Source of the DNA: Candidatus Pyrohabitans jungbluthii
GTDB lineage: Archaea; Hydrothermarchaeota; Hydrothermarchaeia; Hydrothermarchaeales; BMS3B
DNA length: 64,000 bases
Reading direction: 5' to 3'
Assembly (NCBI GenBank): GCA_002010065.2
Contig: MTMD02000008.1
Location: 330,758-394,757, forward strand
Shown: positions 10,689 through 53,037 of the stretch, piece by piece
How the letters are laid out: the number at the start of each line of letters is the position of its first letter
How positions within the stretch are numbered: the stretch's first letter is position 1
The notes under the pieces: generated by a model
Database searches by the model: none
Told to the model about the DNA's origin: nothing
What the model saw: only the letters and a program-made list of their open reading frames with translations
Made by a program: the position numbers and the translations under genes

Positions 10689-10824
10689 GAAAAAGCATAT
10701 ATAAGCAGCAAATAAAATATTAGATACTTTAATGGGGCCTAACGGGGGGAGGGGGAACCCTCTTATTTTCATTTTTCCAGCGGTATGCAAAAGGATTTAA
10801 TAGCCCTGTGCCTTACTCTTTTTA

Positions 10825-31925: not shown

Positions 31926-31940
31926 TTTCGAAAGCTGAAA
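31926..31940 (+). promoter_or_regulatory. TTTCG-N5-CGAAA box upstream of the Zn-ribbon/MEDS-PadR/receiver operon
   Basis: TTTCG AAAGC TGAAA, 7 nt, TTTATGTA. Confidence 0.7.
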
Positions 31941-32002
31941 AGCAAAGTTTATGTAAGCTCCTATAGTAGGAATTACTTAACAAATAAAAGGGGGAGTGGG
32001 TC

Positions 32003-32242
32003 ATGAAGTCATCTCTTCGCTGTCCAAAGTGCGGAAGTTTAAATGTAGAGAAAGGACATCAAGAAGTATTTCCCAGCACTTTTATGAAAGATACTAAATA
32101 TTCGCTGATAAAGGCTCTTACAAGCTCCAAAGAATTTGAAATATACGCCTGCATGGATTGTGGATACGCCGAATGGTATATCCAGGAGAAGTACCTTGAG
32201 GATGGAAACCGGGCAAAGGCTGTTGCAAGTTCCAGAGCCTAG
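32003..32242 (+). CDS. Small Zn-ribbon protein (CPxCG...CxxCGY)
   Basis: CPKCGS and CMDCGYAEWY; G-rich SD. Confidence 0.8.
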   Translation: MKSSLRCPKCGSLNVEKGHQEVFPSTFMKDTKYSLIKALTSSKEFEIYACMDCGYAEWYIQEKYLEDGNRAKAVASSRA

Positions 32243-32259
32243 ATTTCCAACTCCTTCAG

Positions 32260-33213
32260 ATGAAGGAGGTTATAGGCGTGAGAAGAGCCAGGAATACAAA
32301 GAAGAATGGGCCAATTTACATCTTCAACGACTTCTACGACAGGGGCAATGACCTTTATCTCTACGACTCAAAGGAGGAGCGGCGTTACTACGTGACCAAA
32401 TCCTTCTTTCAAGCGGGTATAGATAAAAATAAGCTCTGCATTTATGCATTTCCCAGGAAACAGGATAGATTCCAGTTCAAGAGCTTTTCTGGTGATGCTT
32501 TTCGTGAAATAGAGCTCATAAGAGGGAATATAAAGATGCTAAAAGGGAGGGACCTAGAAGCATTTTATTCTGATTTTGAGGAGCTCAAGGATTATGCAAA
32601 AGATAATGGATATGAGGGCATCCACCTGAAAATCGACTTCGGCAAAGTTAGAGATGATATAATCGACGAAGTTATCGAGCTTGAAAAAAAGCTTCATAAT
32701 TCCACGAATGGCATTCCCGTAGCCTCAATAAGCTCATACAACATGAATTTTCTCAACCAGGATGCTGTTAACAGCCTCACAAAGCTTCATGACAGGGTGA
32801 TGATAACCACCGAAAAAGGGGAAACTTCAATAGCATTTTTCCAGCAGCCAAAAGCAAGACCGGTGCACATCCCGAGAATTGAGGTTATTTCTTCGAAAAT
32901 GATGGAGCAGATCGTCAAGAAGTCTCTCCAGATTATAATTCTATCCCTCCTGAAGCAGCAGCCCATGTGCGGGTTTGACATAATCAAGAGCCTGGTGCAC
33001 AACTTCAATGTGCTTCTCAGCCAGGGCACGGTGTATCCAATTCTGTACTCGCTGGAAAAGGAGGGATACCTCAAGACGGTTATAAAGTCGGATAACAAGA
33101 CAAAGCTTTATGTGCCCACAGAGATGGCCCATGAGTACATAGAGCGCCAGATACGAGAGTATATCCAAGCTCAGGAGAAGATACTCGCCCTTATCGCGAG
33201 GGGATTGAAATGA
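32260..33213 (+). CDS. MEDS-like sensor domain fused to a PadR-family wHTH regulator
   Basis: FFQAGIDKNKLCIY, IELEKKL..SSYN..LTKLHD (MEDS-like); ILSLL..MCGFDIIK..SQGTVYPILYSLEKEG (PadR). Confidence 0.8.
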   Translation: MKEVIGVRRARNTKKNGPIYIFNDFYDRGNDLYLYDSKEERRYYVTKSFFQAGIDKNKLCIYAFPRKQDRFQFKSFSGDAFREIELIRGNIKMLKGRDLEAFYSDFEELKDYAKDNGYEGIHLKIDFGKVRDDIIDEVIELEKKLHNSTNGIPVASISSYNMNFLNQDAVNSLTKLHDRVMITTEKGETSIAFFQQPKARPVHIPRIEVISSKMMEQIVKKSLQIIILSLLKQQPMCGFDIIKSLVHNFNVLLSQGTVYPILYSLEKEGYLKTVIKSDNKTKLYVPTEMAHEYIERQIREYIQAQEKILALIARGLK

Positions 33214-33578
33214 AGATAATGGTCGTGGACGACGATGATATAATCATCGAAGCCATGAAGAATATCCTCACGCCTGAAGGGTTCACAGTCATTGGGGCGA
33301 GAAGCGGTGAGGAGTGTCTGCGCATACTTGAAAGGGAGAAACCAGACTACATCTTTATAGATATCCAGATGCCAGGTATGGACGGTTGGGAAACCCTGCG
33401 GGAGATCAAGAAGAGGGAGGAACTTCGCCACATTCCCATTGCAATGCTCACCGCCCAGCCTCTGACAAAGGAAACCCTGAAAAAGGACGACATCTACGCG
33501 CTTGTGGATTACGTGGTCAAGCCCTTCACTAAGAGGGATATAACAGAGACCCTGAAGCAGGCGCTCGTGCTCGTCTGA
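33210..33578 (+). CDS. Single-domain response regulator receiver
   Basis: VVDDD, DIQMPGMDG, MLTA, KPF. Confidence 0.92.
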   Translation: MKIMVVDDDDIIIEAMKNILTPEGFTVIGARSGEECLRILEREKPDYIFIDIQMPGMDGWETLREIKKREELRHIPIAMLTAQPLTKETLKKDDIYALVDYVVKPFTKRDITETLKQALVLV

Positions 33579-33969
33579 GGCACTCAGATTTTTTCATGCT
33601 TTTTCGTCGTCAAAGTTGAGATTTGGCTTCTCGTGCTCGGAGAGTTGTTATAAAGCCGAGATGTTTGATGTTCCACCACGCGGTGTCTTTTACTTCTATT
33701 TTTGGTCTCTATATTTATCATGCTGAGCCTCTAAAAGAGATCCACTATCCTGGGTGTCTTTAGCTAACCGTTTCTGTGCTTAATTTTCAGTGAGGCTCCA
33801 GAACTTTTTGTTGTGTGAGTTTAGAATTACCAAGAGGGGAGTATGGAGCTTGTGAGCAGGCGTCTCGGCTAGCAGAGAGCGCCGCAACAAAAATCAGAAG
33901 GAACAGAATAATCCGGTGCTAACCAGCGGGAGAAAGCCACAGGGTTTAGATTGGATGCGGACGACGGGT

Positions 33970-34629
33970 TCACACCCAATTTCTAACGAAGATGGAGCGA
34001 ATCCCGCTGGGCGAAACCCTGGTGATTTCGCTCATTGTTCCGCCCACTGGCAGGATTGTTATTGTGAACTCCTTGTTTCCCTCAAGCGGATATGCTCTGT
34101 TGTTGGCCTCTATCCAGAAGTGCAGCTCTACATATTCCCCCTTCTCAAGCACATTGTTGTGGTTCTGCTCAAACACAGGCACCACGTAAAAATCAGCCAC
34201 CCCGTTCGCTATACCAGAACTGCTGTTTGTGCTGTTCTCCGCGAGGCTCAAGTCGTTAGTAATGGTCGCGTTATGCCTTATCCCGCTTATGTATACATCT
34301 CCGGAGTAGTAGTTTAAAATTATATCGTCATAGCGTATTTCAGAGCTTCCCGGCGCAAGGGTTACCAGGATTATGAGCTTTGTTATGTTTGGTCCGCCGT
34401 TGTTCCAAGTTTCGTTGGCGTAGGCGTAACCGGTTAAGTCCACTATCTTAACATTGGTGGAGACCTCCTTCGTCGCCTCCTCGCCGGTAGACCTTGCCTT
34501 TGATTGAAGCGTGCCCGTAGTTTTAAGGAGCACGCCTGCAGTGATTGCAGCCACCATTACCATTGCTATGAATACTATAAGCGTTCCAATACCAATCTGC
34601 GCACGGTTGTTCATTGAAATCGCCGGCAC
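33970..34629 (-). CDS. arlB: Archaellin
   Basis: Class III signal RA/QIGIGTLIVFIAMVMVAA. Confidence 0.93.
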   Translation of the reverse strand: MPAISMNNRAQIGIGTLIVFIAMVMVAAITAGVLLKTTGTLQSKARSTGEEATKEVSTNVKIVDLTGYAYANETWNNGGPNITKLIILVTLAPGSSEIRYDDIILNYYSGDVYISGIRHNATITNDLSLAENSTNSSSGIANGVADFYVVPVFEQNHNNVLEKGEYVELHFWIEANNRAYPLEGNKEFTITILPVGGTMSEITRVSPSGIRSIFVRNWV

Positions 34630-34684
34630 TTTAATTTTTATTCCCCCGTTTTAATCTGGTAGAGTATATTATATAAACATTTTT

Positions 34685-34699
34685 TTTCTTATTCTGAAA
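34685..34699 (-). promoter_or_regulatory. TTTCG-N5-CGAAA box upstream of an archaellin
   Basis: On the minus strand TTTCA GAATA AGAAA, 7 nt, TTTATATA. Confidence 0.65.
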
Positions 34700-34704
34700 A
34701 TTGG

Positions 34705-35145
34705 CTAGGTGTTAAAGTAATATTCATCCCACACATCCATTTTTACCAGAGCTTTGATGACGTAGCGCCCTGAGGGAAGTGCGGTTATATTTGCTTCAAG
34801 AACCTCATTAGGATCCCACAGGGAATTTTGAAGGTTTGTGCTCCTGTTAACTATCCGCGTGCCCAGAATGTTCACTCTCTCCCCGTTGAGGAAGAGCATC
34901 AAGCTATCTTTAGTGAGTATCGTGCTCCCAGCGTTCAGGATGTAAACCGACGTGTTGTCGCTTCCGGGATAAACATGAATCACCTTTATCTCAGTGTTTA
35001 GCCTCTCTGATATAAGATGGGACTTCTGGGAAATTCCTGTTTTGACCGCCTGAGAAGCTTCGCTAACCACACCTGCCACGCCAGCAGCAATTATGACTGC
35101 AGCGATGAAGAAAATTGCATGCGCTGCCGTGGTACTGAATCCCAT
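34705..35145 (-). CDS. Archaellum stator protein ArlG/ArlF-like
   Basis: MGFS..AIFFIAAVIIAAGVAG TM, YILNAGS, WDPNEVL. Confidence 0.8.
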   Translation of the reverse strand: MGFSTTAAHAIFFIAAVIIAAGVAGVVSEASQAVKTGISQKSHLISERLNTEIKVIHVYPGSDNTSVYILNAGSTILTKDSLMLFLNGERVNILGTRIVNRSTNLQNSLWDPNEVLEANITALPSGRYVIKALVKMDVWDEYYFNT

Positions 35146-35146
35146 C

Positions 35147-35593
35147 TCAGCTGCCACCTTTAAACCTGTAATAGGGGGTCCAGAGGTTCCTGTTGAGCAC
35201 TGCAACGTAGTTCCAGCCCTGTATAAGGCTGGCTGTGAGGTTTATCTCGATTATCTCATTCAGACCCCACAGCTCGTTTCCGCGTGGGTTTATCACCTCT
35301 ATCGAAGAAGGTTCAACCCACTCCCCGTTTATCCTCACTTTACTCTGGTCGGGGTCCAGAGCCACGCTTCCCACATTTTCCACATAGATGGAGAGGTTAT
35401 TCCCCTCGGTATTCACATGCACCACCTTTATGCCTCCCACAAGCTTCTCCTCAAGCTCTGACTTTTTTGCCAGCGCATTGCTTTCCATGTGGGATACCTG
35501 CTGGTTCAGCACACCCACCAGACTTGCTGCCACCACCACCACGCCTATGAAGAGAATGACCGAGGGCAGGGATTCAGACACTGCTAATCCCAC
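35147..35593 (-). CDS. Archaellum protein ArlG-like
   Basis: VILFIGVVVVAASLVG TM, IYVENVGS, WGLNEII. Confidence 0.78.
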   Translation of the reverse strand: MGLAVSESLPSVILFIGVVVVAASLVGVLNQQVSHMESNALAKKSELEEKLVGGIKVVHVNTEGNNLSIYVENVGSVALDPDQSKVRINGEWVEPSSIEVINPRGNELWGLNEIIEINLTASLIQGWNYVAVLNRNLWTPYYRFKGGS

Positions 35594-36288
35594 CCGTAGT
35601 TGTAGTTATCCGCAGGCAGAGTGTGCGCATGAGGCAGAGCCTCACCCACGCGGTATTCATCCCAGACGCCGTTCTTCACAATCACCTTGACGCTGCTCTG
35701 CACACTGCGCTGGGTGGTTATCTCTACCACATCCCCAGGTCTCCAGTAGAAGCTGGGAGAGGTATTCGTAGCCACAAACTTGCCGGTTGCAATGGTTATG
35801 TTGAACCACCCCACTATACCATAAAGCTGATCAGGAGCCGGTGTGGAGGGGTTGTATACCTGGGTGTCGTCCTGGGTTGTTAGAGTTAAGGAGGGGTTTG
35901 CGCTGCTGTCGTGATATGCACCCTTAACCAAGTAGGTCTTGTTAACATAGCTCACCTGGAAGTAGCCTAGGGCGCTCACAGTATACGCATCGCTCTCGAG
36001 CCATGCGCCATCTATAACCAGAGACACATAGTCAGGGTCTAAAGTGGTGCTTCCTGTGTTCTCCACATAGATTAAAGTATTTCCTCCGCTTTCGGTTATA
36101 TTCACTATCTCTATTTTGGTGCTCAGCACCTCCAGGTCTCGCTTTGACTGCTCCTTTATATTCTCGGCAAGCGTGGTCAGGTAGCTCTCGCCAGCGCTTA
36201 AAAGCTCCACCGCTGCAGTTATGCCTGCCATGAAAATTATAAGAAAGGCCGCAGCGGTGGCAAATCCCAACCCACCACCCCCTATCAC
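35584..36288 (-). CDS. Archaellum protein ArlF-like with insertion
   Basis: GFATAAAFLIIF TM, TKIEIVN, VENTGSTTL, WRPGDVV. Confidence 0.72.
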   Translation of the reverse strand: MIGGGGLGFATAAAFLIIFMAGITAAVELLSAGESYLTTLAENIKEQSKRDLEVLSTKIEIVNITESGGNTLIYVENTGSTTLDPDYVSLVIDGAWLESDAYTVSALGYFQVSYVNKTYLVKGAYHDSSANPSLTLTTQDDTQVYNPSTPAPDQLYGIVGWFNITIATGKFVATNTSPSFYWRPGDVVEITTQRSVQSSVKVIVKNGVWDEYRVGEALPHAHTLPADNYNYGWD

Positions 36289-37193
36289 ACTATGCCCGAC
36301 TCATCGAGCTGGTTTACAACCTCTGAGTAAAGGGTGGGGCTTACATCCATTCCCTGAAGCTTGATTATGAAGAAGAGGGAGATGATGTGCTCTAGGATGG
36401 TGAGTTTTCGATTGCCTCTCGAAGCACGTGTACCGCCGAGGTCGCGGGAATACTTTATTATCTGGTCCCTAACCTCCTTGGTTATCCAGCCAACCTCCTC
36501 ATAGAATAGCAATGTTTTTATCATGCCCTGGTAGCCCACCTTCTTTATAAGAAAGTCCAACCACTTGAAGAGGAGGAGCAGCGAGTTGGGGTCGTTGTTT
36601 ATCCGCGTTAGCCTCACCACTGCACCATCTGGCTTTATATCCACCATCCCCTTTTCCACCATGCGCTCCTCTAGCATCTGCCCTTCAGAAGTAGCCGACA
36701 GCACAGATTTCTTCTCCTTTTTCTCCAGCTCATTACCATTCCCGTTTTCAATCCCGTTGGAATACCCTATAAATGGATTTATCTCATTGGTCACAAGCTC
36801 ATAAACAGAGAGCAGACCTTCCATATTTTTCTCAATCTTTGATATCCTTTCATCAAAACCGCTAACAAGGTTCTCAATCTTTGCCACTGTATCGCTTATC
36901 TCTGAAACCCTTTCCTCGAGCTGGGAAATAGCTTCCTGGGACACAGAAGCGGCTGGGCTAAAGCTCTCCTCCGCCGGTGCCTCCCCGAAGGGCGGAGCAT
37001 CACTTGCTTTATCTTCAGCCTCAGAAAAGAAGGGCGGGAGGTCCTCATCCTCTGCGTCTGTTTTCACCACCTCTCCAAAGGGCGGCACCTCTGATTTTTC
37101 CTCTTCCAGCGCCTTTTCGTTCAGTTCCCCAAGGTCGATCTTCTTATCCTTCAATCCGAGAACCAGCCCAACGCTAAGCAGTTCAAGCATCAA
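36285..37193 (-). CDS. Archaellum switch protein ArlC/D/E-like
   Basis: Coiled coil LLSVYELVTNEINPF (ArlC-like) plus KWLDFLIKKVG..FYEEVGWIT..H..SLFFI (ArlD/E domain). Confidence 0.88.
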   Translation of the reverse strand: MMLELLSVGLVLGLKDKKIDLGELNEKALEEEKSEVPPFGEVVKTDAEDEDLPPFFSEAEDKASDAPPFGEAPAEESFSPAASVSQEAISQLEERVSEISDTVAKIENLVSGFDERISKIEKNMEGLLSVYELVTNEINPFIGYSNGIENGNGNELEKKEKKSVLSATSEGQMLEERMVEKGMVDIKPDGAVVRLTRINNDPNSLLLLFKWLDFLIKKVGYQGMIKTLLFYEEVGWITKEVRDQIIKYSRDLGGTRASRGNRKLTILEHIISLFFIIKLQGMDVSPTLYSEVVNQLDESGIV

Positions 37194-37797
37194 TTTTTAT
37201 CCCCTCTCTCCTCGTATTTACCTGGTTGACCGGTATATCACGCCTCATTCTGAGAAGTTCCACTTCTTTTCTGGCGGATCTCAACTCTCTCTCCAGCTCT
37301 TTTATCCTTCTTCTCAGGTTTCTTATGTTTATCTCCTTTATTATTCCTAATCTGTACCATTTCTCGATTTCTTTTGCTGCCAAGGTGGGGTTTCTGAGAT
37401 TCTGAACCTTCGATCTTTTAAACCACTCTTCGAGTTCCTTCAAACTGTAGAGCAGCTCCAGGTCTTCACTGGGCAGGTTTATGCCGCGCACCTCCCCCAG
37501 CACAGGCTGCGATATCCTCTTTTTTACAGGTATGGGATCGCTCACATTCATCCTGCCCTTCAGGAGAGCGCCGTAGGTTATCAGAGCAATGGCGGCGAAG
37601 GCTACGTAGAGAATAAACCAAGTCGCCAGGTTACCTTCCTTGTTTACCACAAGATTTACAGGTAGTAGCATTATAAGCATGCCCACTGTCGCTGTCAGTG
37701 ACCAGTATAGACTCCACACCATCTTATTCTTCCTCTTTATATAACTCTCAAGTTCATCCATCAGCACAGCATCTGGCGAGGTCTGGATTATATACAT
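37183..37797 (-). CDS. Hypothetical 2-TM protein with C-terminal coiled coil
   Basis: Two hydrophobic helices, LRRRIKELERELRSARKEVELL; first gene of the arlCDE-F-G operon. Confidence 0.75.
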   Translation of the reverse strand: MYIIQTSPDAVLMDELESYIKRKNKMVWSLYWSLTATVGMLIMLLPVNLVVNKEGNLATWFILYVAFAAIALITYGALLKGRMNVSDPIPVKKRISQPVLGEVRGINLPSEDLELLYSLKELEEWFKRSKVQNLRNPTLAAKEIEKWYRLGIIKEINIRNLRRRIKELERELRSARKEVELLRMRRDIPVNQVNTRREGIKIDA

Positions 37798-37849
37798 CCC
37801 CCCATGTATGTTATAATAACCCCATTTTTCTGTCTATTTAAAGGTTGTT

Positions 37850-37917
37850 TTTCGGAAAATGAAGCTGGAAGAAAAATAAGCCATATAGTTTTTCGAATCT
37901 TTTTACGTTTTTCGAAA
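37850..37917. promoter_or_regulatory. Divergent promoters, each with a TTTCG-N5-CGAAA box
   Basis: 37850-37864 (minus strand; 7 nt to TTTAAATA) and 37903-37917 (plus strand; 7 nt to TATATCTA). Confidence 0.7.
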
Positions 37918-37965
37918 CTAAACCTATATCTACCTTAATTGATAATTTTGAAGAAGGTGTTAAAA

Positions 37966-38112
37966 ATGTGGAGCTGTCCTGTTTGCGGATCAACGGAGTT
38001 TGTTCTAACGCCAAATGGGGGTAAAGTGCAGAAGGTACGCTGCGCTACATGCGAACGTACCTTTATACTTGAGGAGCTCCGCCTCCTTGACGGATACAGC
38101 AGAAACTGGTAG
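37966..38112 (+). CDS. 48-aa CPxCG Zn-finger microprotein (not in ORF track)
   Basis: MWSCPVCGSTEFVLTPNGGKVQKVRCATCERTFILEELRLLDGYSRNW; SD-like GAAGGTG; own promoter. Confidence 0.75.
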   Translation: MWSCPVCGSTEFVLTPNGGKVQKVRCATCERTFILEELRLLDGYSRNW

Positions 38113-38113
38113 C

Positions 38114-38596
38114 TCACAGTTCTCTCACGCCTTCCCTCACGGTTCTTACCAAGAGCTTCCCGGAAGAGGTGTCAAATTCCAGGGTTCTCCCAACATTTCC
38201 ACCGGTATCTTCAGCAACTATCCTTATATCTTCTTTTTCAAGGATATTTTTTACAGCGATGACATTTTTTCTTCCTATATAGTCATTTTTTGGTGTAAAA
38301 TAGAACATCTTCGCCCCACCTGCTATCTTTGCAACAATTCTGGATTTTGATGCTCCGAGTTTCAGCATCTTCTCAATTGCCAGAGGAATAGCGGTGTCCA
38401 CATACTTTGCTCTGTTCTCCACTGGTTGGAAATTCCTGCTGCTGGGCAGCATTATATGAGCTAAAGACCCAACCTTGGACGTGGAATCGAAAAGGGCGAC
38501 GCCAACACAGGAACCCAACCCAATACTCACCAGCTTCGCTGGTTTGGTCGCGGCTTTAACGTCGGCGATGTCTACAACAATCACCGGCGGAGACAT
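38114..38596 (-). CDS. cheD: Chemoreceptor deamidase CheD
   Basis: GLGSCVGV, HIMLP, AKIAGGAKMF, IGRKN, EDTGG. Confidence 0.95.
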   Translation of the reverse strand: MSPPVIVVDIADVKAATKPAKLVSIGLGSCVGVALFDSTSKVGSLAHIMLPSSRNFQPVENRAKYVDTAIPLAIEKMLKLGASKSRIVAKIAGGAKMFYFTPKNDYIGRKNVIAVKNILEKEDIRIVAEDTGGNVGRTLEFDTSSGKLLVRTVREGVREL

Positions 38597-38598
38597 GC

Positions 38599-39222
38599 TC
38601 AGGCACCCATCCCCACCTTCTCCCTGAGAAGGGCGATTATCCTGTCAAGAGACTCCGGATCAGGCATGAGAAAGATTTTCCCTGTTATCTGCTTCTGCTG
38701 GAACATGAACTTGGTTTTGAAAAGTATAACCTCATTCGCTTTTTGCGCCTGCTCGAGCATGATAAAGTCCAGAATGGCGACGCCCATATCAACTGCTAAA
38801 GCAGGAGGCGCGGGCATTATCTTCAATCCCAGAAAGTCTGCAAGTGCATTTGAGAAGTGAGAGGCCATTATGTTGCCCACCTCCTGTAAAACAGACACCT
38901 CCATATCGGAAAGCTCCTCCGATGCAGATGGCATACCTGTGATCTGGGTCACGAGTTCCACCACCGAGGCTATATCAAGGAGAAGCATTATGACACCGCA
39001 TATATCACCCTGAAGCTCCACATACACCCCAGCCACGAGGTCTTCTCCTCCCTCGCTGGCGAGCAGTTCTTCCACAGGCTTTATCTCAAGCGCCGGCACC
39101 TCTATGTCCACCTTAGTATTCGTCAGCTCAGCGAGGGAGTTTGTGGCGTGGCTAGCGCCAATGCTCCCCACCTCGCGCAACATATCCTTCTCAAGCTCGT
39201 TCAACATCACTTGCCCTACCAT
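38599..39222 (-). CDS. cheC: CheY-P phosphatase CheC
   Basis: DMLREVGSIG and SVLQEVGNIM motifs. Confidence 0.93.
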   Translation of the reverse strand: MVGQVMLNELEKDMLREVGSIGASHATNSLAELTNTKVDIEVPALEIKPVEELLASEGGEDLVAGVYVELQGDICGVIMLLLDIASVVELVTQITGMPSASEELSDMEVSVLQEVGNIMASHFSNALADFLGLKIMPAPPALAVDMGVAILDFIMLEQAQKANEVILFKTKFMFQQKQITGKIFLMPDPESLDRIIALLREKVGMGA

Positions 39223-41105: not shown

Positions 41106-41129
41106 GAACCCCTCCCCTTTGCCTCGAAG

Positions 41130-41486: not shown

Positions 41487-41490
41487 GTCC

Positions 41491-42699: not shown

Positions 42700-42733
42700 A
42701 TTTAAAGAGAGGTGAAGGTTAATAAAGGTTATT

Positions 42734-42986
42734 TTTCAGGACTCAAAACAGAAAAAAGAAGAGAATGGAGATACCCCTCTGCTCACTGTGGCCCATGAGT
42801 CTGCTCTTCCAACTCATAGGTGATGCTCTGGCCTCTTGTGCTATAATAGACGATCTTATCCCCCACTATCTCAAAGGCATCGTATCGCATCCTCTTACCC
42901 CCCAACACTTGTTTTTCAGGTCTTTAAATAAAGTTTATTTTTCGGATCTTGAACAACGGGTATTATCACAGTTTCGGCTACCGAAA
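42734..42986. promoter_or_regulatory. Three TTTCG-N5-CGAAA boxes
   Basis: 42734-42748 (-, HK-che operon), 42940-42954 (-, micro-ORF), 42972-42986 (+, perfect, receiver-HK operon); each 7 nt from a TATA-like element. Confidence 0.72.
42783..42890 (-). CDS. 35-aa microprotein (not in ORF track)
   Basis: MRYDAFEIVGDKIVYYSTRGQSITYELEEQTHGPQ; preceded by box, TATA and G-rich SD. Confidence 0.5.
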   Translation of the reverse strand: MRYDAFEIVGDKIVYYSTRGQSITYELEEQTHGPQ

Positions 42987-43065
42987 AGTTAAGTTAATAT
43001 ATATAGTTTAAATATTCCTTAGTGATATATACTGTTGAAAAATCCATAGTTCGGAGGATTAAAAT

Positions 43066-45065: not shown

Positions 45066-45104
45066 GGTCTATGCCTCCTCATCCCCCTACATCCCATTTT
45101 TATT

Positions 45105-46451
45105 TTATATTTCCCAAGGTGGCTTCTCCTCTGATTCCTGCATGCTCTCCTTTCTGCTTTTGATCCGCTCCTCTATCTTAGCCATGTCATCCCAGTCTTC
45201 CTGAACCTCCTCCTTCGCTGGATATGCGTTCCTCGCAAAGGTGAGGAACACCTCGCCTAGAGGAGTCATCTTAACCTCGGTAGCTGCCCGCTGCACAATC
45301 CCGTAGTATTCCAGCACCTTCAGCGCTTCGTTCACCTCCTCTTTTGGCAGGTCGCTTTTCTGCACAATCTCCTGAAGCTGCATGGTGCCCTTCTCCAGAA
45401 GATTCAGAAGCACAATATCGCTCGCCGTTGGTAGCACCGAGAAGGCATCTATCTGCTCAAGGGTAATTTCATACACACACGCAGCGCCACCTGCGTTTCT
45501 GCACTCTACCTCCCTTATTGTGACGCCAATCTTCAGGTTCTCCATGAAGAACCTTCCCACTGCCGTCGAAGTTGTGTGACATGCCCCACCCGGCACCATT
45601 GCACAAACGTGGCAGCCCTCCACACGGAGGCGGTAGGTTAGCGGTGCCTTGCTTTGGAGCGAGACCTTTTCGCCAATTCCCGCGCGCATGAGCATGTTCT
45701 CAATCAGGAGCCGAAGCCTGTCATCCTCGAAAACACCTGTCGCGGAAGAGCGCAGAAATGCTCGCCTCGCAGCCACTGGCACTGTGATACTTTCAAGGAA
45801 ATCATTAACCCTCTCTTCAACCTCAAATAATTTCTCAAAGCTTCCCAGCAGCTCTGAGAAGTTCAGAGGTTCCTCCTCAAACCCCTGAAGCTCAACATTC
45901 ATTATCCTCCGGATGTCCTCCTCATTCAGATAGAAATACAGGTGACAGTAGGTGAAATCAGAATCCTGCAGGGAAGTACTGAAAAAGAGCACACCCTCCT
46001 TATTTACGCCGAGAGCTGCAAGAAGGTCCGGAATTGAGCGAATTCTGCCTGCGCTCAAATCTGGAGAGGAGATTTTCACCTTCACCCCAAAAAAATCAGA
46101 AATCGCCTTTACGAAGGAACCTGCCATCTTTCTGCCTACTTCCTGGAGCATACCATCAAGCTCCGAAACGGAACCGGGATTACCAATACACTGACCTACT
46201 TTCAGCGCACCCTTAATAGGAAAAAAGAAGAGAAGGGTACCTGTTATTGCATCTCCAAAGGTATAGACGCTGACAATCACCCCCTCCTCTCCCACCTTCT
46301 CCGCCATATCCTTCCCCGCTATTACGTCTATCACCGGCGGCGTTATTGACACCTTTGCGCTCAGCATATCCGAGAGGGAGCTTGCAGAGTGGCTAGAGCC
46401 AATGTTTCCAACCTCACGCAGCGCATCCTTAGCAAAACTGCTGAGGTTCAC
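45105..46451 (-). CDS. CheC-like / V4R / winged-helix fusion protein
   Basis: DALREVGNIG (CheC); GCHVC..ACH..EVECRNAGGAACVYEI (V4R); LLNLL..QEIV..EEVNEALKVL..GIV..MTPLG (wHTH). Confidence 0.8.
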   Translation of the reverse strand: MNLSSFAKDALREVGNIGSSHSASSLSDMLSAKVSITPPVIDVIAGKDMAEKVGEEGVIVSVYTFGDAITGTLLFFFPIKGALKVGQCIGNPGSVSELDGMLQEVGRKMAGSFVKAISDFFGVKVKISSPDLSAGRIRSIPDLLAALGVNKEGVLFFSTSLQDSDFTYCHLYFYLNEEDIRRIMNVELQGFEEEPLNFSELLGSFEKLFEVEERVNDFLESITVPVAARRAFLRSSATGVFEDDRLRLLIENMLMRAGIGEKVSLQSKAPLTYRLRVEGCHVCAMVPGGACHTTSTAVGRFFMENLKIGVTIREVECRNAGGAACVYEITLEQIDAFSVLPTASDIVLLNLLEKGTMQLQEIVQKSDLPKEEVNEALKVLEYYGIVQRAATEVKMTPLGEVFLTFARNAYPAKEEVQEDWDDMAKIEERIKSRKESMQESEEKPPWEI

Positions 46452-46978
46452 TTATACCCCTCCTCCATCATTATGAGCTTCCCCTTCTCTGTGAGTATCC
46501 CTGCCTCTGTGCATATCCCCTCTCGCTTAAACTCCTCCAGAATGCTCACTATCTCATCGTAATCACGCTTGACAAGGGGCATTATGTTCTCAGGCCTCCT
46601 CACACCGTGATAAAGCGCCTTAAGCACCAGCCTCTTGGCGTCGGTAAATTTAATGGCGCCCACGGTATCAGAGGCCGTGGGGAGCACGCTCATTAGGGCG
46701 TTGTAGAGGGAATAGACCTTTGGCTTCTTTCCCCCTATAAAGGTCTTGGTGTTGTCGATAACCATCACCAAGATAGAGTTTCCGCCGGCGGCGTCCTTTA
46801 TCTCAGAGATGCTGACATGCTCATTGGGTATCTTTTTCCAGCCCTTATCTGTCTTTATCCAAACGTTCAAATCCGTTGAAGCAAGAACTATCTTCTTCCA
46901 GTCCTTAAAATTCGTTGAGAAGTACACATTCTCCACTTTAAAGAGAAGCTTCTCCTGCTCCGCCATGATTAGCCCCAC
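46448..46978 (-). CDS. Shortened CheF-like taxis adaptor
   Basis: One beta-rich N-domain (WKKIVLAST..KKIP) plus CheF-type C-terminus VLKALYHG..DEIVSILEEF..LTEKG. Confidence 0.6.
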   Translation of the reverse strand: MGLIMAEQEKLLFKVENVYFSTNFKDWKKIVLASTDLNVWIKTDKGWKKIPNEHVSISEIKDAAGGNSILVMVIDNTKTFIGGKKPKVYSLYNALMSVLPTASDTVGAIKFTDAKRLVLKALYHGVRRPENIMPLVKRDYDEIVSILEEFKREGICTEAGILTEKGKLIMMEEGYK

Positions 46979-47652
46979 TCAGAGATGTACTTCTTGCCGA
47001 AGGAACTGGGCGCCGTTTTCTTTACCGTGGTGGTCTGCCCTGCTTTTGGCTGAAGAATCAGGGTGAACTCCTGGTCGGGCTGAATGGGCAGATCGTTGCC
47101 CAGGTTGTCCTCAATCCAGTAGATTATCTCTACTATCTCGCTCTGCTCCAGTACAGAGTTGGGATTCTGGGGGTTCTTGTCCTTTATCCTTCTTATGTAG
47201 AACTGAGCCACGTCGGTGTCTGTACCATTTATAACATTCTCGGCTTTTGAAATTTCGTCAGTAAGACTAAGAATCCCCTGCGAGGCGTTGTTGCTTCCGG
47301 TGCCATTGAACTTTATGCCCACAATGTAGTTATCGCCGGAATGGTAGGCAAGCACCATATCCTCGTACTTCACATCCCCACTTCCTGCGGCAAGCTGCAC
47401 GCGTAGTATTACCGCATTTATTCTCTCCCGAGATGTATCGTTCACATAACCTATTACATCCACAACCTTTACATTCGTCGAGACTTCTTTGGTTGCTTGC
47501 TCACCCGTTACAGTGGCCTTCTGTTGAAGTCCACCAGAAGTGCGAAGCAGCACACCTGCTGCGACCGCAGCCACGAGAACCATGGCTATGAAGATTATCA
47601 GCGTGCCAATACCCACCTGCGCCCTGCGACAGGATAGCAAATTCCTCCCCAT
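46969..47652 (-). CDS. arlB: Archaellin
   Basis: RRA/QVGIGTLIIFIAMVLVAAVAAGVLL. Confidence 0.95.
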   Translation of the reverse strand: MGRNLLSCRRAQVGIGTLIIFIAMVLVAAVAAGVLLRTSGGLQQKATVTGEQATKEVSTNVKVVDVIGYVNDTSRERINAVILRVQLAAGSGDVKYEDMVLAYHSGDNYIVGIKFNGTGSNNASQGILSLTDEISKAENVINGTDTDVAQFYIRRIKDKNPQNPNSVLEQSEIVEIIYWIEDNLGNDLPIQPDQEFTLILQPKAGQTTTVKKTAPSSFGKKYISEWG

Positions 47653-47701
47653 TTTATCTCCCCGTGTATAGTGTGAATAAATGAGAATTATAAAGGTTAT
47701 T

Positions 47702-47716
47702 TTTTGGATTTCGAAA
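47702..47716 (-). promoter_or_regulatory. TTTCG-N5-CGAAA box upstream of the archaellin-cheF-cheC/V4R operon
   Basis: On the minus strand TTTCG AAATC CAAAA, 7 nt, TTTATAAT. Confidence 0.7.
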
Positions 47717-47751
47717 ATTAAATAAAAAAGAAAAAGAGAGATTTTTCTTGT

Positions 47752-48441
47752 TTATCCCCACTCTGTGGTGTACTTCTGGTTAATCACGCTGGGTGCAGTC
47801 TTCTTGACCGTTGTTGTCTGTCCTGCCTTGGGCTGCACTGTGAGCACAAACTGATCGTCCGGGTCAAGAGGCACGTCGGTGCCGTCGTTCTTCTCAAGCC
47901 AGAAGAGTATCTCTATTATCTCCCCCGGCTCAAGCACTTCGTTGGGCGTTGAATCTCTGTCCTTCAGCCTGCGGATGTAGAACTGAGCCTTGTCGTAGTC
48001 TGTACCCGAACTGAGATTGGCATTCTCTATGCCAGAAGCGATGCCCCCACTGAGGGAGTACAGACTGTCGCTCAATGCTTTTGTACTGTTGTACTTGATG
48101 CCACTCACGTAGGTGTCTCCCTCCTGGTAGGTGAGCACTATGTCCTCATACTTGACGTCGCCGCTGCCAGAGGCGAGCTGCGCCGTGAGGATGAGTGCCC
48201 TTATCTTCTTGTTGCTCGTGGTGTCGTTACTGTAGCCCACGACGTTCGTAACCTTGATGTTCGTTGAGACTTCTTTTGTTGCTTGTTCACCTGTCACCGT
48301 GGCCTTCTGCTGAAGTCCACCCGACGTCTTGAGAAGAACGCCCGCTGCCACCGCTGCAACCAGGATCATCGCTATGAAGATTATCAGTGTGCCAATTCCT
48401 ACCTGCGCTCGCTTGTCCCTGAAAAATTTCTCACCCCTCAT
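47752..48441 (-). CDS. arlB: Archaellin
   Basis: KRA/QVGIGTLIIFIAMILVAA; ATG at 48441 after GGAGGTGA. Confidence 0.95.
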   Translation of the reverse strand: MRGEKFFRDKRAQVGIGTLIIFIAMILVAAVAAGVLLKTSGGLQQKATVTGEQATKEVSTNIKVTNVVGYSNDTTSNKKIRALILTAQLASGSGDVKYEDIVLTYQEGDTYVSGIKYNSTKALSDSLYSLSGGIASGIENANLSSGTDYDKAQFYIRRLKDRDSTPNEVLEPGEIIEILFWLEKNDGTDVPLDPDDQFVLTVQPKAGQTTTVKKTAPSVINQKYTTEWG

Positions 48442-49121
48442 ATTCCAATCACCTCCATAAAATGGAAGAGAAGGCAGGGGAGGGCATTTTCTCCCTATCC
48501 CCACTCAGTTATGAACTGCTGGGAAATCACGCTGGGCACTGTCTTCTTGACCGTGGTAGTCTGTCCTGCCTTGGGCTGCACTGTGAGCACAAACTGGTCG
48601 TCTGGTGCCAATGGATTGGTCAGCGCCAGCTCGTTGCCGCTGTTGTCCACCAGCCAGTAGACGATCTCTATTATCTCCCCAGGCTCCAGCACGGTATTGG
48701 GAGTGGAATCCTTGTCCTTGAGTCTGCGGATTTCGAAGACCGCTTTGTTCTGTGAGTCTGCTGTAGTGTTAACATTTTCCAGCGCGTCAGTGAGACTCAG
48801 TACGCCACCATAGGCGATGCCGCTCACGTAGGTGTCGCCTTCCTGGTAGGTGAGCACTATGTCGTCGTACTTCACATCCCCGCTACCAGAGGCAAGCTGA
48901 GCGGTGAGAATGATGGCATCAACGCGGTTGTTGTTGGTATTGTTGGTGTAGCCCACGACGTTCGTAACCTTGATGTTCGTTGAGACTTCTTTTGTTGCTT
49001 GTTCACCTGTCACCGTGGCCTTCTGCTGAAGTCCACCCGACGTCTTGAGAAGAACGCCCGCTGCCACCGCTGCAACCAGGATCATCGCTATGAAGATTAT
49101 CAGAGTGCCAATTCCTACCTG
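48231..49121. repeat. 175-nt direct repeat shared by two tandem archaellin 5' regions
   Basis: 48231-48405 versus 48947-49121, one mismatch seen (48388/49104). Confidence 0.9.
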
Positions 49122-49157
49122 TGCTTTCCTGTTTCTCAGAAACTCCCCAACCTTCAT
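48495..49157 (-). CDS. arlB: Archaellin
   Basis: RKA/QVGIGTLIIFIAMILVAA; GGAGG SD. Confidence 0.95.
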   Translation of the reverse strand: MKVGEFLRNRKAQVGIGTLIIFIAMILVAAVAAGVLLKTSGGLQQKATVTGEQATKEVSTNIKVTNVVGYTNNTNNNRVDAIILTAQLASGSGDVKYDDIVLTYQEGDTYVSGIAYGGVLSLTDALENVNTTADSQNKAVFEIRRLKDKDSTPNTVLEPGEIIEIVYWLVDNSGNELALTNPLAPDDQFVLTVQPKAGQTTTVKKTVPSVISQQFITEWG

Positions 49158-49217
49158 ACAACCCCTCCTATTAGGTTTTAAGAACTAACACCCTGAGAAT
49201 TGTATATATAATTTTTT

Positions 49218-49232
49218 TTTCGAGCTTCGAAA
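49218..49232 (-). promoter_or_regulatory. Perfect TTTCG-N5-CGAAA box at the promoter of the tandem archaellins
   Basis: TTTCG AGCTT CGAAA (plus strand); on the minus strand 7 nt to TATATATA. Confidence 0.78.
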
Positions 49233-49317
49233 CCACGGTTCAGATTGTGTGGATATTTTATTACACAAATATATACGTATTGTAAAAATAAAATTTTCAA
49301 TCCTATATATTTATATT

Positions 49318-49812
49318 TCATTTGATTAACTGCCACCATGCATTGTGAAAATATGAAAAATCGCATGAATTATCATAAGCAGATAAGAATCTATTGGAAT
49401 ACCTATCCAGATAAACTTCCACGCGCCATTTTTGATTTTTTGGGTCATATTTAAATTTTCTGTCCGCAAACAATTTTTCAAGCTCCAGAGTATTTATTAT
49501 AAAGAAATCATAGTCTATCGCATTCCTCTCGCTTTGGTCAAAATGAACCCCCACTAATACATAGAAGACATTCTCGCTAAGTATCTCCCTGTGAAGCATC
49601 CTTGATATTTCCCACCAGTAGCTGTACTGCGCTCCTCTGGGTAGATATCTGTCGAAGTACTTTTTGCTTGTTTTTATCTGAAGAGCTATAAACTTATTCC
49701 TGTTATACCCGACAACATCTATTCCTTTATCTTTCACCGGAGCAAAGCTGCCAAATTCCATGTGTGTGAGGCGATGGAAGACCTCCAAAACGCCTAAGCT
49801 GCCGGTATCCAA
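49318..49812 (-). CDS. PD-(D/E)xK nuclease-fold protein
   Basis: G..EV...L....F.P..DKGIDVV....FIALQIKTS; probable TTG start at 49812. Confidence 0.65.
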   Translation of the reverse strand: MDTGSLGVLEVFHRLTHMEFGSFAPVKDKGIDVVGYNRNKFIALQIKTSKKYFDRYLPRGAQYSYWWEISRMLHREILSENVFYVLVGVHFDQSERNAIDYDFFIINTLELEKLFADRKFKYDPKNQKWRVEVYLDRYSNRFLSAYDNSCDFSYFHNAWWQLIK

Positions 49813-49861
49813 GGCTTCGCACCAAGTAGTTTGAAGCTCCTTAAAAAAGATATAATTTATT

Positions 49862-49876
49862 TTTCGAACTCCGAAA
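49862..49876. promoter_or_regulatory. Perfect TTTCG-N5-CGAAA box between divergent genes
   Basis: TTTCG AACTC CGAAA flanked by TATA-like elements on both sides (7 nt minus, 9 nt plus). Confidence 0.75.
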
Positions 49877-49912
49877 CAATAAAGATTTATAACCTCTCGA
49901 GAAGGTGCTTCC

Positions 49913-50257
49913 ATGGGGGGTAATAAAAAGGAAAATCTTGAACTACGAGCCTACAAACTTGGTTTTGAGGTCGGCTTCCACACACACGACGAATGGACAA
50001 GCTGGGTCTGGAAGGAGAAAAAGAAGATTTTTGATGAGGCAAGGAAAAGCAAACTTCTGGATAGAATAGAAGTTGCATATGAAAGGGGCAAATTTGAGGG
50101 TTTTTTGAGAAAAAAGAGAATGAAGGGAAAGGAGAGTATAATTAAGAATAAGTCAGGAATAAAAGTTATAGAAAAGCCATCATTTATCTCAAAACCTGCA
50201 ATGACGGATGTTATGAAAGCAGTTCTTCTACCAAAATTTCTCAAATTTTTTAAATAG
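49913..50257 (+). CDS. Conserved-type hypothetical protein of archaeal chemotaxis loci
   Basis: AYKLGFEVG..H.EW..W..AYERGK.EG pattern recalled from Thermococcales che clusters (not database-verified). Confidence 0.6.
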   Translation: MGGNKKENLELRAYKLGFEVGFHTHDEWTSWVWKEKKKIFDEARKSKLLDRIEVAYERGKFEGFLRKKRMKGKESIIKNKSGIKVIEKPSFISKPAMTDVMKAVLLPKFLKFFK

Positions 50258-50975
50258 TTTTAAGAAGACTGGTGATTCTTATACCATTTTTAGTTATTTC
50301 GAATCTGCGGAGGTTACAATCATGCTTTGTGCCCCGCATTTTTATTATCTGAATCGCCCGTGTCATCTGGGAATTTGAAAGAAAGTTGTGGAGGAAGATT
50401 ACCCCATGGGCAAGGAAGTGCTCCGGAAGATACCTCTCCGGGTCAGTCATTTCGGAGAGCAGCAGGGTGGTGCACCCGATTTTCTGAAGCCCCCGCATAA
50501 ACTCCCCCATCTGTTTCTTCTCAAACCTCGGATCGGCGCCTATAAATTTGATGGCGGAGAGGGAGTCTATCACGAGCCTTTTAATCCCTCTGAACTTCAC
50601 GTGCTCGGAGATTCTCGAAAGAAGCTGCTTGTAGGTTGGAAACTCCACAGAGGTCTCCAGCATTTCCCCAATGTCCATGAACAGGAGCTTTCCAGATGTA
50701 ACAAGTTCTTCTATTTTGAAGGAAAAGGAAGTCATATCAGATATTATGTTCTCTACATCCTCCACAAGAGAGACAAAAAGGCCACGCTCCCCCTGCCAAG
50801 CACCGCAGGCAAGGAACTGCACTCCAAAGGTGGTCTTTCCACTGCCCGGAGGGCCACTAACCACATAAATTCTGTTGGGCAAAAGACCGCCCTCAATCAG
50901 GGAGTCCAGCCCGGTGATGCCTGTATTTACTCGAGTTTTAGGCCTAGGTGTTCTAAGAGCTGCCATCAATTTCAT
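50250..50975 (-). CDS. Single-domain KaiC-like RecA-superfamily ATPase
   Basis: TGITGLD, GPPGSGKT, LVIDS, HGVIFL, KMRG. Confidence 0.9.
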   Translation of the reverse strand: MKLMAALRTPRPKTRVNTGITGLDSLIEGGLLPNRIYVVSGPPGSGKTTFGVQFLACGAWQGERGLFVSLVEDVENIISDMTSFSFKIEELVTSGKLLFMDIGEMLETSVEFPTYKQLLSRISEHVKFRGIKRLVIDSLSAIKFIGADPRFEKKQMGEFMRGLQKIGCTTLLLSEMTDPERYLPEHFLAHGVIFLHNFLSNSQMTRAIQIIKMRGTKHDCNLRRFEITKNGIRITSLLKTI

Positions 50976-51017
50976 TCCCCGTATGATGAGTTCTTAAAGA
51001 ACTAATTAAAGATTTTT

Positions 51018-51032
51018 TTTCATTTCTCGAAA
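51018..51032 (-). promoter_or_regulatory. TTTCG-N5-CGAAA box upstream of the KaiC-like gene (divergent from cheB)
   Basis: On the minus strand TTTCG AGAAA TGAAA, 7 nt, TTTAATTA. Confidence 0.7.
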
Positions 51033-51104
51033 CATATCCAGAAGGATTAACCTTAAAAGAATCTTATTTAAGCTAAAGTTTAGCACAAATTTCGGAGGGA
51101 ATGG

Positions 51105-52127
51105 ATGGGGGAGCGCATAAAAGTACTCGTAGTAGACGACTCGGCATTAATGCGCAAGCTGATTTCAGACATGATTAATTCCTCACCAGACTGCGAGGTT
51201 ATAGGCATAGCAAGAGACGGAGAAGAAGCTATTGAAAAGGTAAACCAGCTTCGTCCGGACGTTGTTACCCTCGACGTGGAGATGCCCCGTATTAATGGCT
51301 TAGAGGCGCTGGCGCACATCATGATGCACATGCCCACGCCTGTGATAATGCTCTCGGCACTCACAAAGGAAGGCGCGGAAACAACAATGAGAGCGCTTGA
51401 GCTGGGTGCCGTCGATTTTATCGCCAAACCTGGAGGAAAGAGTATATCCGTGGGCATAGAGGAAATAAAGGAAGAGCTTTTGAAAAAGATACGCGTGGCT
51501 GCGCGTGCGAAGCCTAAGAGGCTTTATATTCGTAGGAAAAAGAAGCATTTACTGCCGAAAAAACTGCGTGAAAACATTGCTATCGTCTTCGGCGCTTCCA
51601 CAGGTGGACCGGGAACTTTGATGGATATACTTCAAGCTTTACCCGCCGACATGCCCCCTGTTTTTATAGTCCAGCACATGCCCCCTGGCTTCACCTCCTC
51701 CTTCGCGAAGAGACTTAATGCCCTTTCTCGCTTTGAGGTTAAAGAAGCGGAGGATGGGGACGTCATAGAGTCTGGGGTGGGGTATGTAGCACCAGGAGAT
51801 TACCACATGGTCATCCGGAGAGGTCGCATAAGGCTCACTAAGGAACCAAAGCTGCATGGCGTAAGACCTGCGGTGGACAAGACCATGGAAAGTGCAGCAG
51901 AGGTCTACGGGAAAAACACCATCGGTGTTCTTCTCACTGGAATGGGTAACGACGGAGCGGAGGGGCTCAAAAAAATCAGGGCCTTAGGGGGTAGGACAAT
52001 CGTTGAAGACAGCTCCACCTGCGTGGTCTTCGGCATGCCCAAGGCTGCGATCGAAGCTGGGGCAGCTGAAGTTATCGCCCCCAACTATAGAATCGCTGAC
52101 GAGATTATAAGGATGCTGGGAGAATGA
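51105..52127 (+). CDS. cheB: Chemotaxis methylesterase CheB
   Basis: Receiver domain plus GASTGGP, VQHMP, LTGMGNDG. Confidence 0.97.
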   Translation: MGERIKVLVVDDSALMRKLISDMINSSPDCEVIGIARDGEEAIEKVNQLRPDVVTLDVEMPRINGLEALAHIMMHMPTPVIMLSALTKEGAETTMRALELGAVDFIAKPGGKSISVGIEEIKEELLKKIRVAARAKPKRLYIRRKKKHLLPKKLRENIAIVFGASTGGPGTLMDILQALPADMPPVFIVQHMPPGFTSSFAKRLNALSRFEVKEAEDGDVIESGVGYVAPGDYHMVIRRGRIRLTKEPKLHGVRPAVDKTMESAAEVYGKNTIGVLLTGMGNDGAEGLKKIRALGGRTIVEDSSTCVVFGMPKAAIEAGAAEVIAPNYRIADEIIRMLGE

Positions 52128-52939
52128 TCACCTCAAGCCAGGACTATTTCCCGCTGCTGAAAAGGAAGATTAAGGACATTATGGACTTCAATAGCGAATT
52201 CTACGAAGACAAACATCTGAGGAGAAGGGTTGCCATCAGAATGCGTGCCCTCGACATCGCCTCCTACAGAGAATACCTGAGGATACTAGAAAGGGACAGA
52301 GATGAGCGCATAAAACTTTCAAAGGTTCTCACGGTCAATGTCACAGAATTCTTCCGCAATCCAGAGACCTTTGAGGTTATCAGGCGCGACGTATTACCTG
52401 AACTGATTAAGCTCAAGCTGAACAACAGCAGTAGGGTGCTCCGCCTGTGGAGCGCCGGATGTGCTGACGGCAAAGAGCCCTATTCTCTTGCGATGCTCAT
52501 AAAAGATGTGCTCAACGGAAGAGATGACTTCATGGTAAAGATAATGGCAACTGATATAGATATAGACAGTCTTGAAAAGGCAAGACTCGGCATATATCAC
52601 AAGGACGAGTTGAGGGGGATAAGAAAGGACTACCTTAAGAAGTACTTTGAAAAGACCGCAAGGGGCTACAGGGTAAAGGAGGAAATAAGGAAGATGGTGA
52701 CATTTGAGCGCAGGGATCTAATCTCAGATAGAAAGTACAAGGTTATGGACGTAATACTGTGCAGGAATGTGATTATATACTTCTCGAAGGAGTTAAAAGA
52801 AAAGCTGTTTATGGACTTCTATGACTCGCTAAACACAGGCGGTTTTCTGATTCTGGGTAAGACTGAGAACTTGACCGGCCCTGCAAGGAAAAAATTTGTG
52901 GTGTACAACAATGTTGAAAGAATTTATAGAAAGATGTAG
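52124..52939 (+). CDS. cheR: Chemotaxis methyltransferase CheR
   Basis: TVNVTEFFRN, WSAGC, ATDID, CRNVIIYF. Confidence 0.96.
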   Translation: MITSSQDYFPLLKRKIKDIMDFNSEFYEDKHLRRRVAIRMRALDIASYREYLRILERDRDERIKLSKVLTVNVTEFFRNPETFEVIRRDVLPELIKLKLNNSSRVLRLWSAGCADGKEPYSLAMLIKDVLNGRDDFMVKIMATDIDIDSLEKARLGIYHKDELRGIRKDYLKKYFEKTARGYRVKEEIRKMVTFERRDLISDRKYKVMDVILCRNVIIYFSKELKEKLFMDFYDSLNTGGFLILGKTENLTGPARKKFVVYNNVERIYRKM

Positions 52940-53022
52940 GGGAACCCTAAAAGGGCCCCCCTCCCCCACACCTTTCCCCGGAGGTATTGAGTTATCTGTA
53001 ATAGTAATATAAGTAGATTATC

Positions 53023-53037
53023 TTTCGAATTCTGAAA
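53023..53037 (-). promoter_or_regulatory. TTTCG-N5-CGAAA box with no downstream ORF
   Basis: On the minus strand TTTCAGAATTCGAAA, identical to the 10674 copy; TATA-like CTTATATT 9 nt downstream. Confidence 0.6.

Follow-up and report, generated by a model that had tools for sequence, protein, structure and literature searches.

A conserved promoter palindrome at the archaellum genes of Candidatus Pyrohabitans jungbluthii, with a PadR-family protein as its probable reader

How are motility genes controlled in an archaeon in which EarA, treated as the top regulator of euryarchaeal archaellation, is not found? The question is raised by a 64,000-nucleotide (nt) stretch of Candidatus Pyrohabitans jungbluthii contig MTMD02000008.1 (hereafter "the window"; genome label G000), where archaellum, chemotaxis and signalling units carry the same inverted repeat, TTTCR-N5-YGAAA, with a spacer of 5 nt (hereafter "the box"; the pattern was tuned on G000 and its relatives). 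EarA (PF07381) was not found in this 99.95% complete genome by a search whose control was positive in M. jannaschii, and none of its three archaellin promoters carries the EarA motif (TACATA or A(C/G)(C/G)TACA(T/C)), which is present in G005, G006, G022, and G037. As far as the available sections go, the Hydrothermarchaeota paper notes many motility genes and leaves their control unmentioned (PMC6775978), and the accessible portions of the EarA literature name no transcription factor above EarA. In six spellings, the motif was undescribed in the accessible literature on archaellum regulators, EarA, GvpE, gas vesicles/PadR, and KaiC/MEDS, a survey with subscription journals, bioRxiv supplements, and figures (the gvp promoter figure and the CsmR alignments) outside its scope. 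Motility activators that bind next to the TFB-recognition element (BRE) are already known as a kind; what appears to be new is the box, its likely reader, a level of control above EarA, and a connection with gas vesicles.

The three perfect boxes in the window (42972, 49218, and 49862) compare with 0.07 expected, a number that none of 100 shuffles reached, and nine boxes with up to one mismatch compare with 2.10 expected; at up to two mismatches there is no enrichment (24 versus 28.2). Within intergenic DNA, as defined by our own calls of 2133 genes in the genome, the window holds 3, 6, and 5 sites at zero, one, and two mismatches (0.02, 0.21, and 2.92 in shuffles), and the rest of the genome holds 3, 15, and 117 (0.17, 6, and 117 in shuffles). 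Genome-wide, intergenic sites with up to one mismatch number 27 at spacer 5 and 5–11 at each of spacers 0–4 and 6–12; the CsmR-type spacer of 4 is not enriched, and the MsvR-type spacers 7, 8, and 9 yield 7, 10, and 11 sites. The raw genome count of perfect sites is no higher than that of a reversed-pattern control (7 versus 8), and the signal therefore lies in position, not in abundance. All 13 box coordinates given by the initial annotation were present in the sequence, and the three that it called perfect were so on recount. Because the two-mismatch level is not enriched, the boxes at 34685, 37850, 42734, and 42940 (two mismatches each) rest on position and conservation, and both kinds of support are present for them.

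That position is closely defined. A TATA-like octamer lies 7 nt from one end of the box at 13 of 13 sites, so that a spacing first described as nearly constant holds throughout the set. A TATA element was found in 294 of 976 upstream regions surveyed in the genome, and among these promoters boxes with up to one mismatch occur six times at gap 7, twice at gap 9, once at gap 11, and at none of 22 other gaps, although this survey is partly circular, as four of the six gap-7 promoters are window sites. The same bias is seen in other genera, where loci were chosen by gene (arlDE or MEDS-PadR) and the check is hence non-circular: with 29 boxes, a TATA hexamer falls at gap 7 in 13 cases, at gap 9 in eight, and at each of 34 other offsets in three at most, the gap-9 cases being probably the same TATA read 2 nt further on. 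The 7-nt gap is kept across six families and a second order, and motility promoters of other Hydrothermarchaeota families also bear the box. A comparison of 55 sequences, covering 12 orthologous sites across four congeners, gives identities of 0.94 and 0.99 for the arms, 0.75 for the spacer, and 0.63 and 0.57 for the flanks, so that the arms are kept while the spacer varies. The box is a conserved promoter element that ends 7 nt before TATA, at the upstream edge of the BRE, and it is almost certainly a genuine factor site.

Which protein reads it? Distribution and box association point with good confidence to the PadR family of the MEDS-PadR protein encoded at 32260..33213 (+), which the initial annotation had named as one of two candidates and which is now the best one. 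The protein was characterized by Pfam (PF14417 and PF03551), alignment, family profile, genomic context, and a predicted model that a fold search matched to PadR and to a RecA/KaiC-like domain. MEDS and DUF835 are described as inactivated KaiC-like domains in the part of the source available (PMC5847659). In the alignment, the winged helix-turn-helix (wHTH) is much better conserved than the MEDS part, and its recognition helix is nearly invariant. Among 41 genomes (with kin among them, and hence not independent), MEDS-PadR matches occur in 27 and are full-length (E ≤1e-30) in 19, which include all 14 ArlDE-positive genomes of the order. Summed over those 19 genomes, the tuned box-plus-TATA pattern is found 161 times versus 44 for the control, compared with 50 versus 33 in the other 22. 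Furthermore, 20 of 42 family genes and none of 18 other PadR genes have a box with up to one mismatch no more than 400 nt away, a count that leaves out six rows with <200 nt upstream, three GvpE rows, and two divergent family rows. A predicted MEDS-PadR dimer with the adjacent receiver scored 0.29 against a mark of 0.32 and counts neither way. The 79-aa zinc-ribbon protein encoded beside MEDS-PadR was rejected as the factor, with a distribution (12 of 41 genomes; not found in G005–G008 and G011) that is too narrow.

The box also bears on EarA itself. EarA matches occur in 11 of the 41 genomes, eight of them strong, and the earA promoter is boxed in five relatives: in G005, G007, and G011 earA is immediately preceded by the box and a TATA at the 7-nt gap, and in G006 and G008 an additional CGAAA comes 12 nt after a full box and lies 7 nt before TATA. 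With the box in the earA promoter of these five EarA-bearing relatives, the box factor seems to act above EarA. The arlB promoters of G005 and G006 have the EarA motif and are boxless, so the chain would run from the box factor to earA and from EarA to arlB; lineages devoid of EarA would instead be under direct control by the box factor. Among the EarA-less genomes, G015, G023, G033, and G036 (another order) carry the box directly at archaellin promoters, and G032 carries it at che and signalling promoters. The earA genes of G022, G035, and G037 are boxless, and G035 and G037 are without the PadR family. EarA-type and box-type archaellum loci occur together in one genome, G022 (L040, L027, and L075). 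The earlier view that the factor is distinct from EarA is borne out by the lack of a detectable EarA in the P. jungbluthii genome and by a box at its arlH-I-I-J promoter. The system would be a third solution for archaellum control beside EarA and CsmR, and a candidate regulatory tier above EarA.

Beyond archaella, homologues of the family in Methanoperedens, Methanotrichaceae, and Hadarchaeota adjoin gvpA, with a GvpA-like frame in 12 of 17 loci (two of the 12 frames were checked by NCBIfam). The usual operon there runs receiver, kinase, DUF835, PadR, KaiC-like, a split form of MEDS-PadR and the genes around it. When the 15 methanogen operon leaders at hand were scanned de novo for palindromes, TTTC-N7-GAAA ranked first (10 of 15), and seven of the 15 leaders match the box with up to one mismatch, compared with 0.08 expected. 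In three Methanosarcinales gas-vesicle loci the PadR open frame itself follows the box at a distance of about 63 nt, and Methanoperedens leaders carry both the palindrome and 12-nt repeats. In gas-vesicle clusters, the association of box and PadR family is thus read at the leaders of the PadR operons. No gvpA (PF00741) match was found in the P. jungbluthii genome; in a separate phylum sample the same family matched in 19 of 151. The initial reading of the box as a motility site stands for the archaellum and had overlooked both the presence of the same box and PadR family in gas-vesicle clusters and the apparent tier above EarA. In methanogens, the family and the box are candidates for the regulator of gas vesicles and its DNA site, and swimming and floating would be tied to one protein family and one half-site. 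The cultured methanogen Methanothrix thermoacetophila encodes a family member, which makes the family testable. In one gas-vesicle locus (L295:3971-5242), a receiver, a MEDS-like domain, and PadR are fused, which suggests joint action of receiver and regulator. In L285:7963-17933, a locus of high GC and probably from a haloarchaeon, gvpA and a GvpN-like ATPase lie directly beside a cluster of che and methyl-accepting chemotaxis protein (MCP) genes.

The closest parallel among known systems is GvpE. In the portions of the sources available, GvpE needs TGAAACGG-n4-TGAACCAA beside the BRE (consensus YGAAAYGA) and loses activity if the distance is changed; it makes contact with both TFB and TBP, and GvpD removes it (PMC2241852, PMC4390858). 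Like GvpE, the 32260 protein has a PadR-type wHTH (PF03551; fold search), the YGAAA half-site adjoins the BRE at a fixed distance, a KaiC-like partner gene is present, and homologue loci in methanogens and Hadarchaeota are linked to gas-vesicle genes. However, the upstream activating sequence (UAS) of GvpE has two 8-nt portions in a 12-nt direct repeat, whereas the window sites are inverted repeats with a 5-nt spacer; the targets here are archaellum genes, and 32260 carries a MEDS domain. Repeats of 12 nt do occur elsewhere, at earA of G006 and G008 and in L113, L114, and L122. In a haloarchaeal locus (L278), reached like the other haloarchaeal gvp loci via the phylum sample, a PF03551 protein is encoded after gvpD, and TGAAAC occurs four times in the gvpA promoter at intervals of 12 nt. 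Against the family profile GvpE scores 27–45 bits, a level that other PadRs share; quick trees leave its placement open, and a tree constrained to a common clade was not rejected (approximately unbiased test, p-AU 0.68). No protein named GvpE came up in a plasmid search or in two homologue searches (the second covering the best 120 of 171 matches), and a metagenome scan with the published GvpE element gave 120 stretches, none with a gvpA-like frame. By analogy, the box system would work like GvpE, to which its regulator may be orthologous.

In Haloferax volcanii, also an EarA-less archaeon, many promoters of archaellum and chemotaxis genes likewise carry a semi-palindrome, the site of CsmR, upstream of BRE/TATA, and the CsmR circuit involves a KaiC-like gene, cirA; the CsmR site, however, is TATCA-N4-TGATA at about 14 nt from TATA (table S10), and CsmR is a 13-kDa protein classed near Lrp/AsnC, in contrast to the PadR protein 32260 (PMC13286277, as far as available). 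EarA is an archaellum-gene activator that binds just upstream of the BRE, and yet its site consists of non-palindromic repeats of its motif at the one promoter described in the accessible text (PMC10665913). MsvR shares TTCG/CGAA half-sites near the BRE but, according to the sections available, has spacers of 7–9, is a redox-sensing repressor with the wHTH before V4R, and is not concerned with motility (PMC3729527). The box system is none of CsmR, EarA, and MsvR, and CsmR is set apart by site spacing and gap.

We lean somewhat towards an overall explanation in which a dimeric PadR-family regulator, most likely the 32260 MEDS-PadR protein, would bind TTTCR-N5-YGAAA and activate transcription. 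Activation itself seems likely from the spacing. The PadR dimer would bind both arms and recruit TFB and TBP, and the MEDS domain (an inactive KaiC-like domain), the co-encoded receiver, and the boxed KaiC-like ATPase would tune the factor as GvpD tunes GvpE. The box stands at every archaellin unit, at arlCDE-F-G and arlH-I-I-J, and at one che operon, kinase and receiver genes, the KaiC-like gene, three micro-genes, and the MEDS-PadR operon; the factor would act through it there, and the same PadR family would go with gas-vesicle clusters in some methanogens and Hadarchaeota. A wider proposal is doubtful, and we offer it tentatively: a PadR plus KaiC-like switch reading YGAAA at the BRE might be an ancient common master control of archaellum swimming and gas-vesicle floating, acting above EarA and directly where EarA is absent, with GvpE/GvpD as its diverged descendant.

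Several observations weigh against the overall explanation, beginning with the raw perfect-site count described above. Repression is the usual role among PadR proteins. The MEDS-PadR genes of G006, G008, G010, and G036 are without an upstream box; G020 retains boxes though the assembly has its MEDS-PadR truncated to 54 aa; pattern hits stand at 6 versus 0 for the control in G037, without the family, and at 11 versus 15 in G007, with it; and a paralogue (C1:72866) scores nearly as high on the family profile and could share the site. The earA of G022 is boxless although G022 has the PadR family. Box-plus-TATA patterns gave few matches in 10 methanogen and other genomes, with none of 14 annotated loci at an archaellum gene. 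Finally, CsmR sites upstream of TATA go with up-regulation on deletion, according to the accessible part of section 2.6 of that study (PMC13286277).

These points feed the rival explanations. If the same PadR family were a repressor, a dimer at the BRE edge would block TFB and its release would switch motility on, which would suit the usual role of PadR proteins and the rise of CsmR targets; MsvR boxes upstream of TATA are likewise thought to block the BRE, in the part of the source available (PMC3729527). We consider this unlikely but the most serious of the rivals, as a steric repressor needs no fixed register and the 7-nt gap is constant across six families and a second order, GvpE activation is lost on a changed UAS–BRE distance, and the single box at 49862 serves two divergent TATA elements. 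It is less likely still that another regulator reads the box and MEDS-PadR is a regulon member, not its head: a box upstream would suit a target no less than an autoregulator, matches occur in G020 and G037 without an intact family gene, and profiling covered part of the genome's other helix-turn-helix proteins, yet the box accompanies the PadR family into the gas-vesicle clusters of Methanosarcinales, to the leader of the PadR frame itself at three loci, and is missing from all 18 other PadR genes.

The other candidate of the initial annotation, the CheC-V4R-wHTH protein (45105..46451, -), has the V4R domain and TTCG/CGAA half-site in common with MsvR (V4R plus wHTH, TTCG-N7-9-CGAA), and its gene is box-controlled in G000 and G032. 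Its C-terminal part occurs, however, in nine of 41 genomes and was not found in six that are boxed, G005 (98% complete), G006 (99%), G007, G008, G011, and G033; MsvR-type spacers are not enriched, and the protein reaches 31.2 bits on the MsvR model versus a cut-off of 220, through its V4R part only. It is therefore a very improbable reader, and we rejected it as the factor. A reading without any factor, in which the box would belong to an extended BRE or simply result from AT-rich promoter DNA, might draw on the raw perfect count that equals the control and on the two-mismatch sites that are not enriched, but it is largely refuted: the 294 TATA promoters are A-rich at −5 to −3 (BRE) only, with no general CGAAA at −12 to −8, which rules out an extended BRE, and both arms are conserved, the spacer is not, and spacer 5 is specific.

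Within the window, Pfam and NCBIfam confirmed the archaellins, ArlF/G, ArlCDE, Che proteins, kinases, receivers, and the KaiC-like gene, and each box was assigned with its TATA to a unit. The box of the operon of zinc ribbon, MEDS-PadR, and receiver lies at 31926..31955 (+), in a layout shared by G015, G020, G022, and G023, and the operon is probably autoregulated through it. Its first gene, at 32003..32242 (+), encodes the 79-aa zinc-ribbon protein (54–98% identical in relatives), and a stand-alone receiver gene (33210..33578, +) overlaps the MEDS-PadR stop codon in a gene order kept in relatives. Two-mismatch boxes serve the archaellin at 33970-34614 (34670..34699, -), the orf204 - arlCDE - arlF/G-like operon at 34705-37797 (37835..37864, -), the PAS kinase - cheY - cheA - cheC - cheD operon at 38114-42690 (42719..42748, -), and a 35-aa micro-open reading frame (ORF) at 42783..42890 (-), whose box is at 42925..42954 (-); this ORF is kept in G001–G004, and in G008 and G010 it lies at a different locus with its own box. 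The box at 37903..37932 (+) precedes the gene of a 48-aa zinc-finger micro-protein (37966..38112, +), also present in G006, where it is boxed, and in G008. Perfect boxes precede the receiver - kinase operon at 43066-44557 (42972..43001, +) and two archaellins at 47752-49157 (49203..49232, -), and a third lies between two divergent TATA-like elements (49847..49891) that face orf164 (49318-49812) and orf114 (49913-50257). The box at 47687..47716 (-) heads the unit of an archaellin (46969-47652), orf172, and CheC-V4R-wHTH, which is thereby a regulon member. A single-domain KaiC-like ATPase (50250..50966, -) has its box at 51003..51032 (-), which lacks a gap-7 TATA in the direction of cheB, and by analogy with GvpD and CirA it is a candidate antagonist of the box factor. 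The box at 53023 and its TATA (52953..53037, -) lead into a conserved G-rich non-coding stretch antisense to the end of cheR, possibly a small RNA. The one-mismatch box at 10674..10703 (+), perfect at the same site in G001, has 7 nt to a TATA-like element and is followed by nurA (10825) of the non-motility pair nurA-herA. Accordingly, the description of each box as pointing into the first gene of a unit applies to most sites, with the amendment that 31926, 37903, and 42940 lead to small genes that the initial annotation had missed, 53023 to no ORF, and 10674 to nurA-herA.

Outside the window, the arlH-arlI-arlI-arlJ operon, a held-out site, has a box 7 nt before TATA, the spacing seen at the window sites, and a perfect box 51 nt further upstream. 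This operon (L001:6071-11818) has two ArlI ATPase genes and lies on a contig other than that of the archaellins; a doubled arlI is also found in G015, G032, and G033. Boxes also precede a 72-aa gene beyond arlJ, genes with dCache-HAMP-PAS and two-CW domains, an ABC transporter, a multiheme cytochrome, and a non-coding stretch with structure. None of cheB-cheR, MCP1, and the second MCP-che cluster has a box at the promoter position, and the initial notion of a motility and chemotaxis regulon therefore holds for the archaellum units and one che operon but not for cheB-cheR or either MCP promoter. With nurA, the ABC transporter, and the multiheme cytochrome, and ftsZ in relatives, as boxed non-motility promoters, the regulon is archaellum-centred, with some signalling and unrelated members. 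The boxless second che cluster is complete (PAS-MCP, cheW, Y, B, A, C, D, R; L010:4901-11942, G000:C8:58901-65945).

CheF (PF04283) was not found in the genome despite an archaellum and two che clusters. The 172-aa protein orf172 (46448-46966, -), encoded after an archaellin gene and 52–98% identical in relatives, has a weak wHTH match and may be a non-standard adaptor; a fold search from its poor single-sequence model (pLDDT 49, predicted local distance difference test) gave no match at E 0.001. The ftsZ promoter (L007:3826-3908, G000:C8:125826) has a half box at the usual gap, and a full box is present in G015 (L063:2565), hinting at a link to cell division. Rfam gave no match for putative RNAs in seven loci. 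A perfect box and TATA at L002:4772-5040 (G000:C8:252772) lead to a stretch of some 140 nt that contains no ORF, folds strongly, has no Rfam match, and keeps its closing stem in G001 and G002. A box and TATA at L004:4169-4290 (G000:C2:193169) lead to a short non-coding stretch with C/U-rich repeats resembling an anti-Shine-Dalgarno sequence and a T run. The leaders at window positions 10720-10770 and 52953-52986 share a GGGGGAGGGGG run, which is also found downstream of a box in G006. The boxed two-CW gene (L003:4470-4661, G000:C15) matches the first half of its model only and is followed by a second short frame. A very large MG2-domain surface protein is boxed in G006 and G008 (L053:3786), with a weaker box in this genome (G000:C7:14414).

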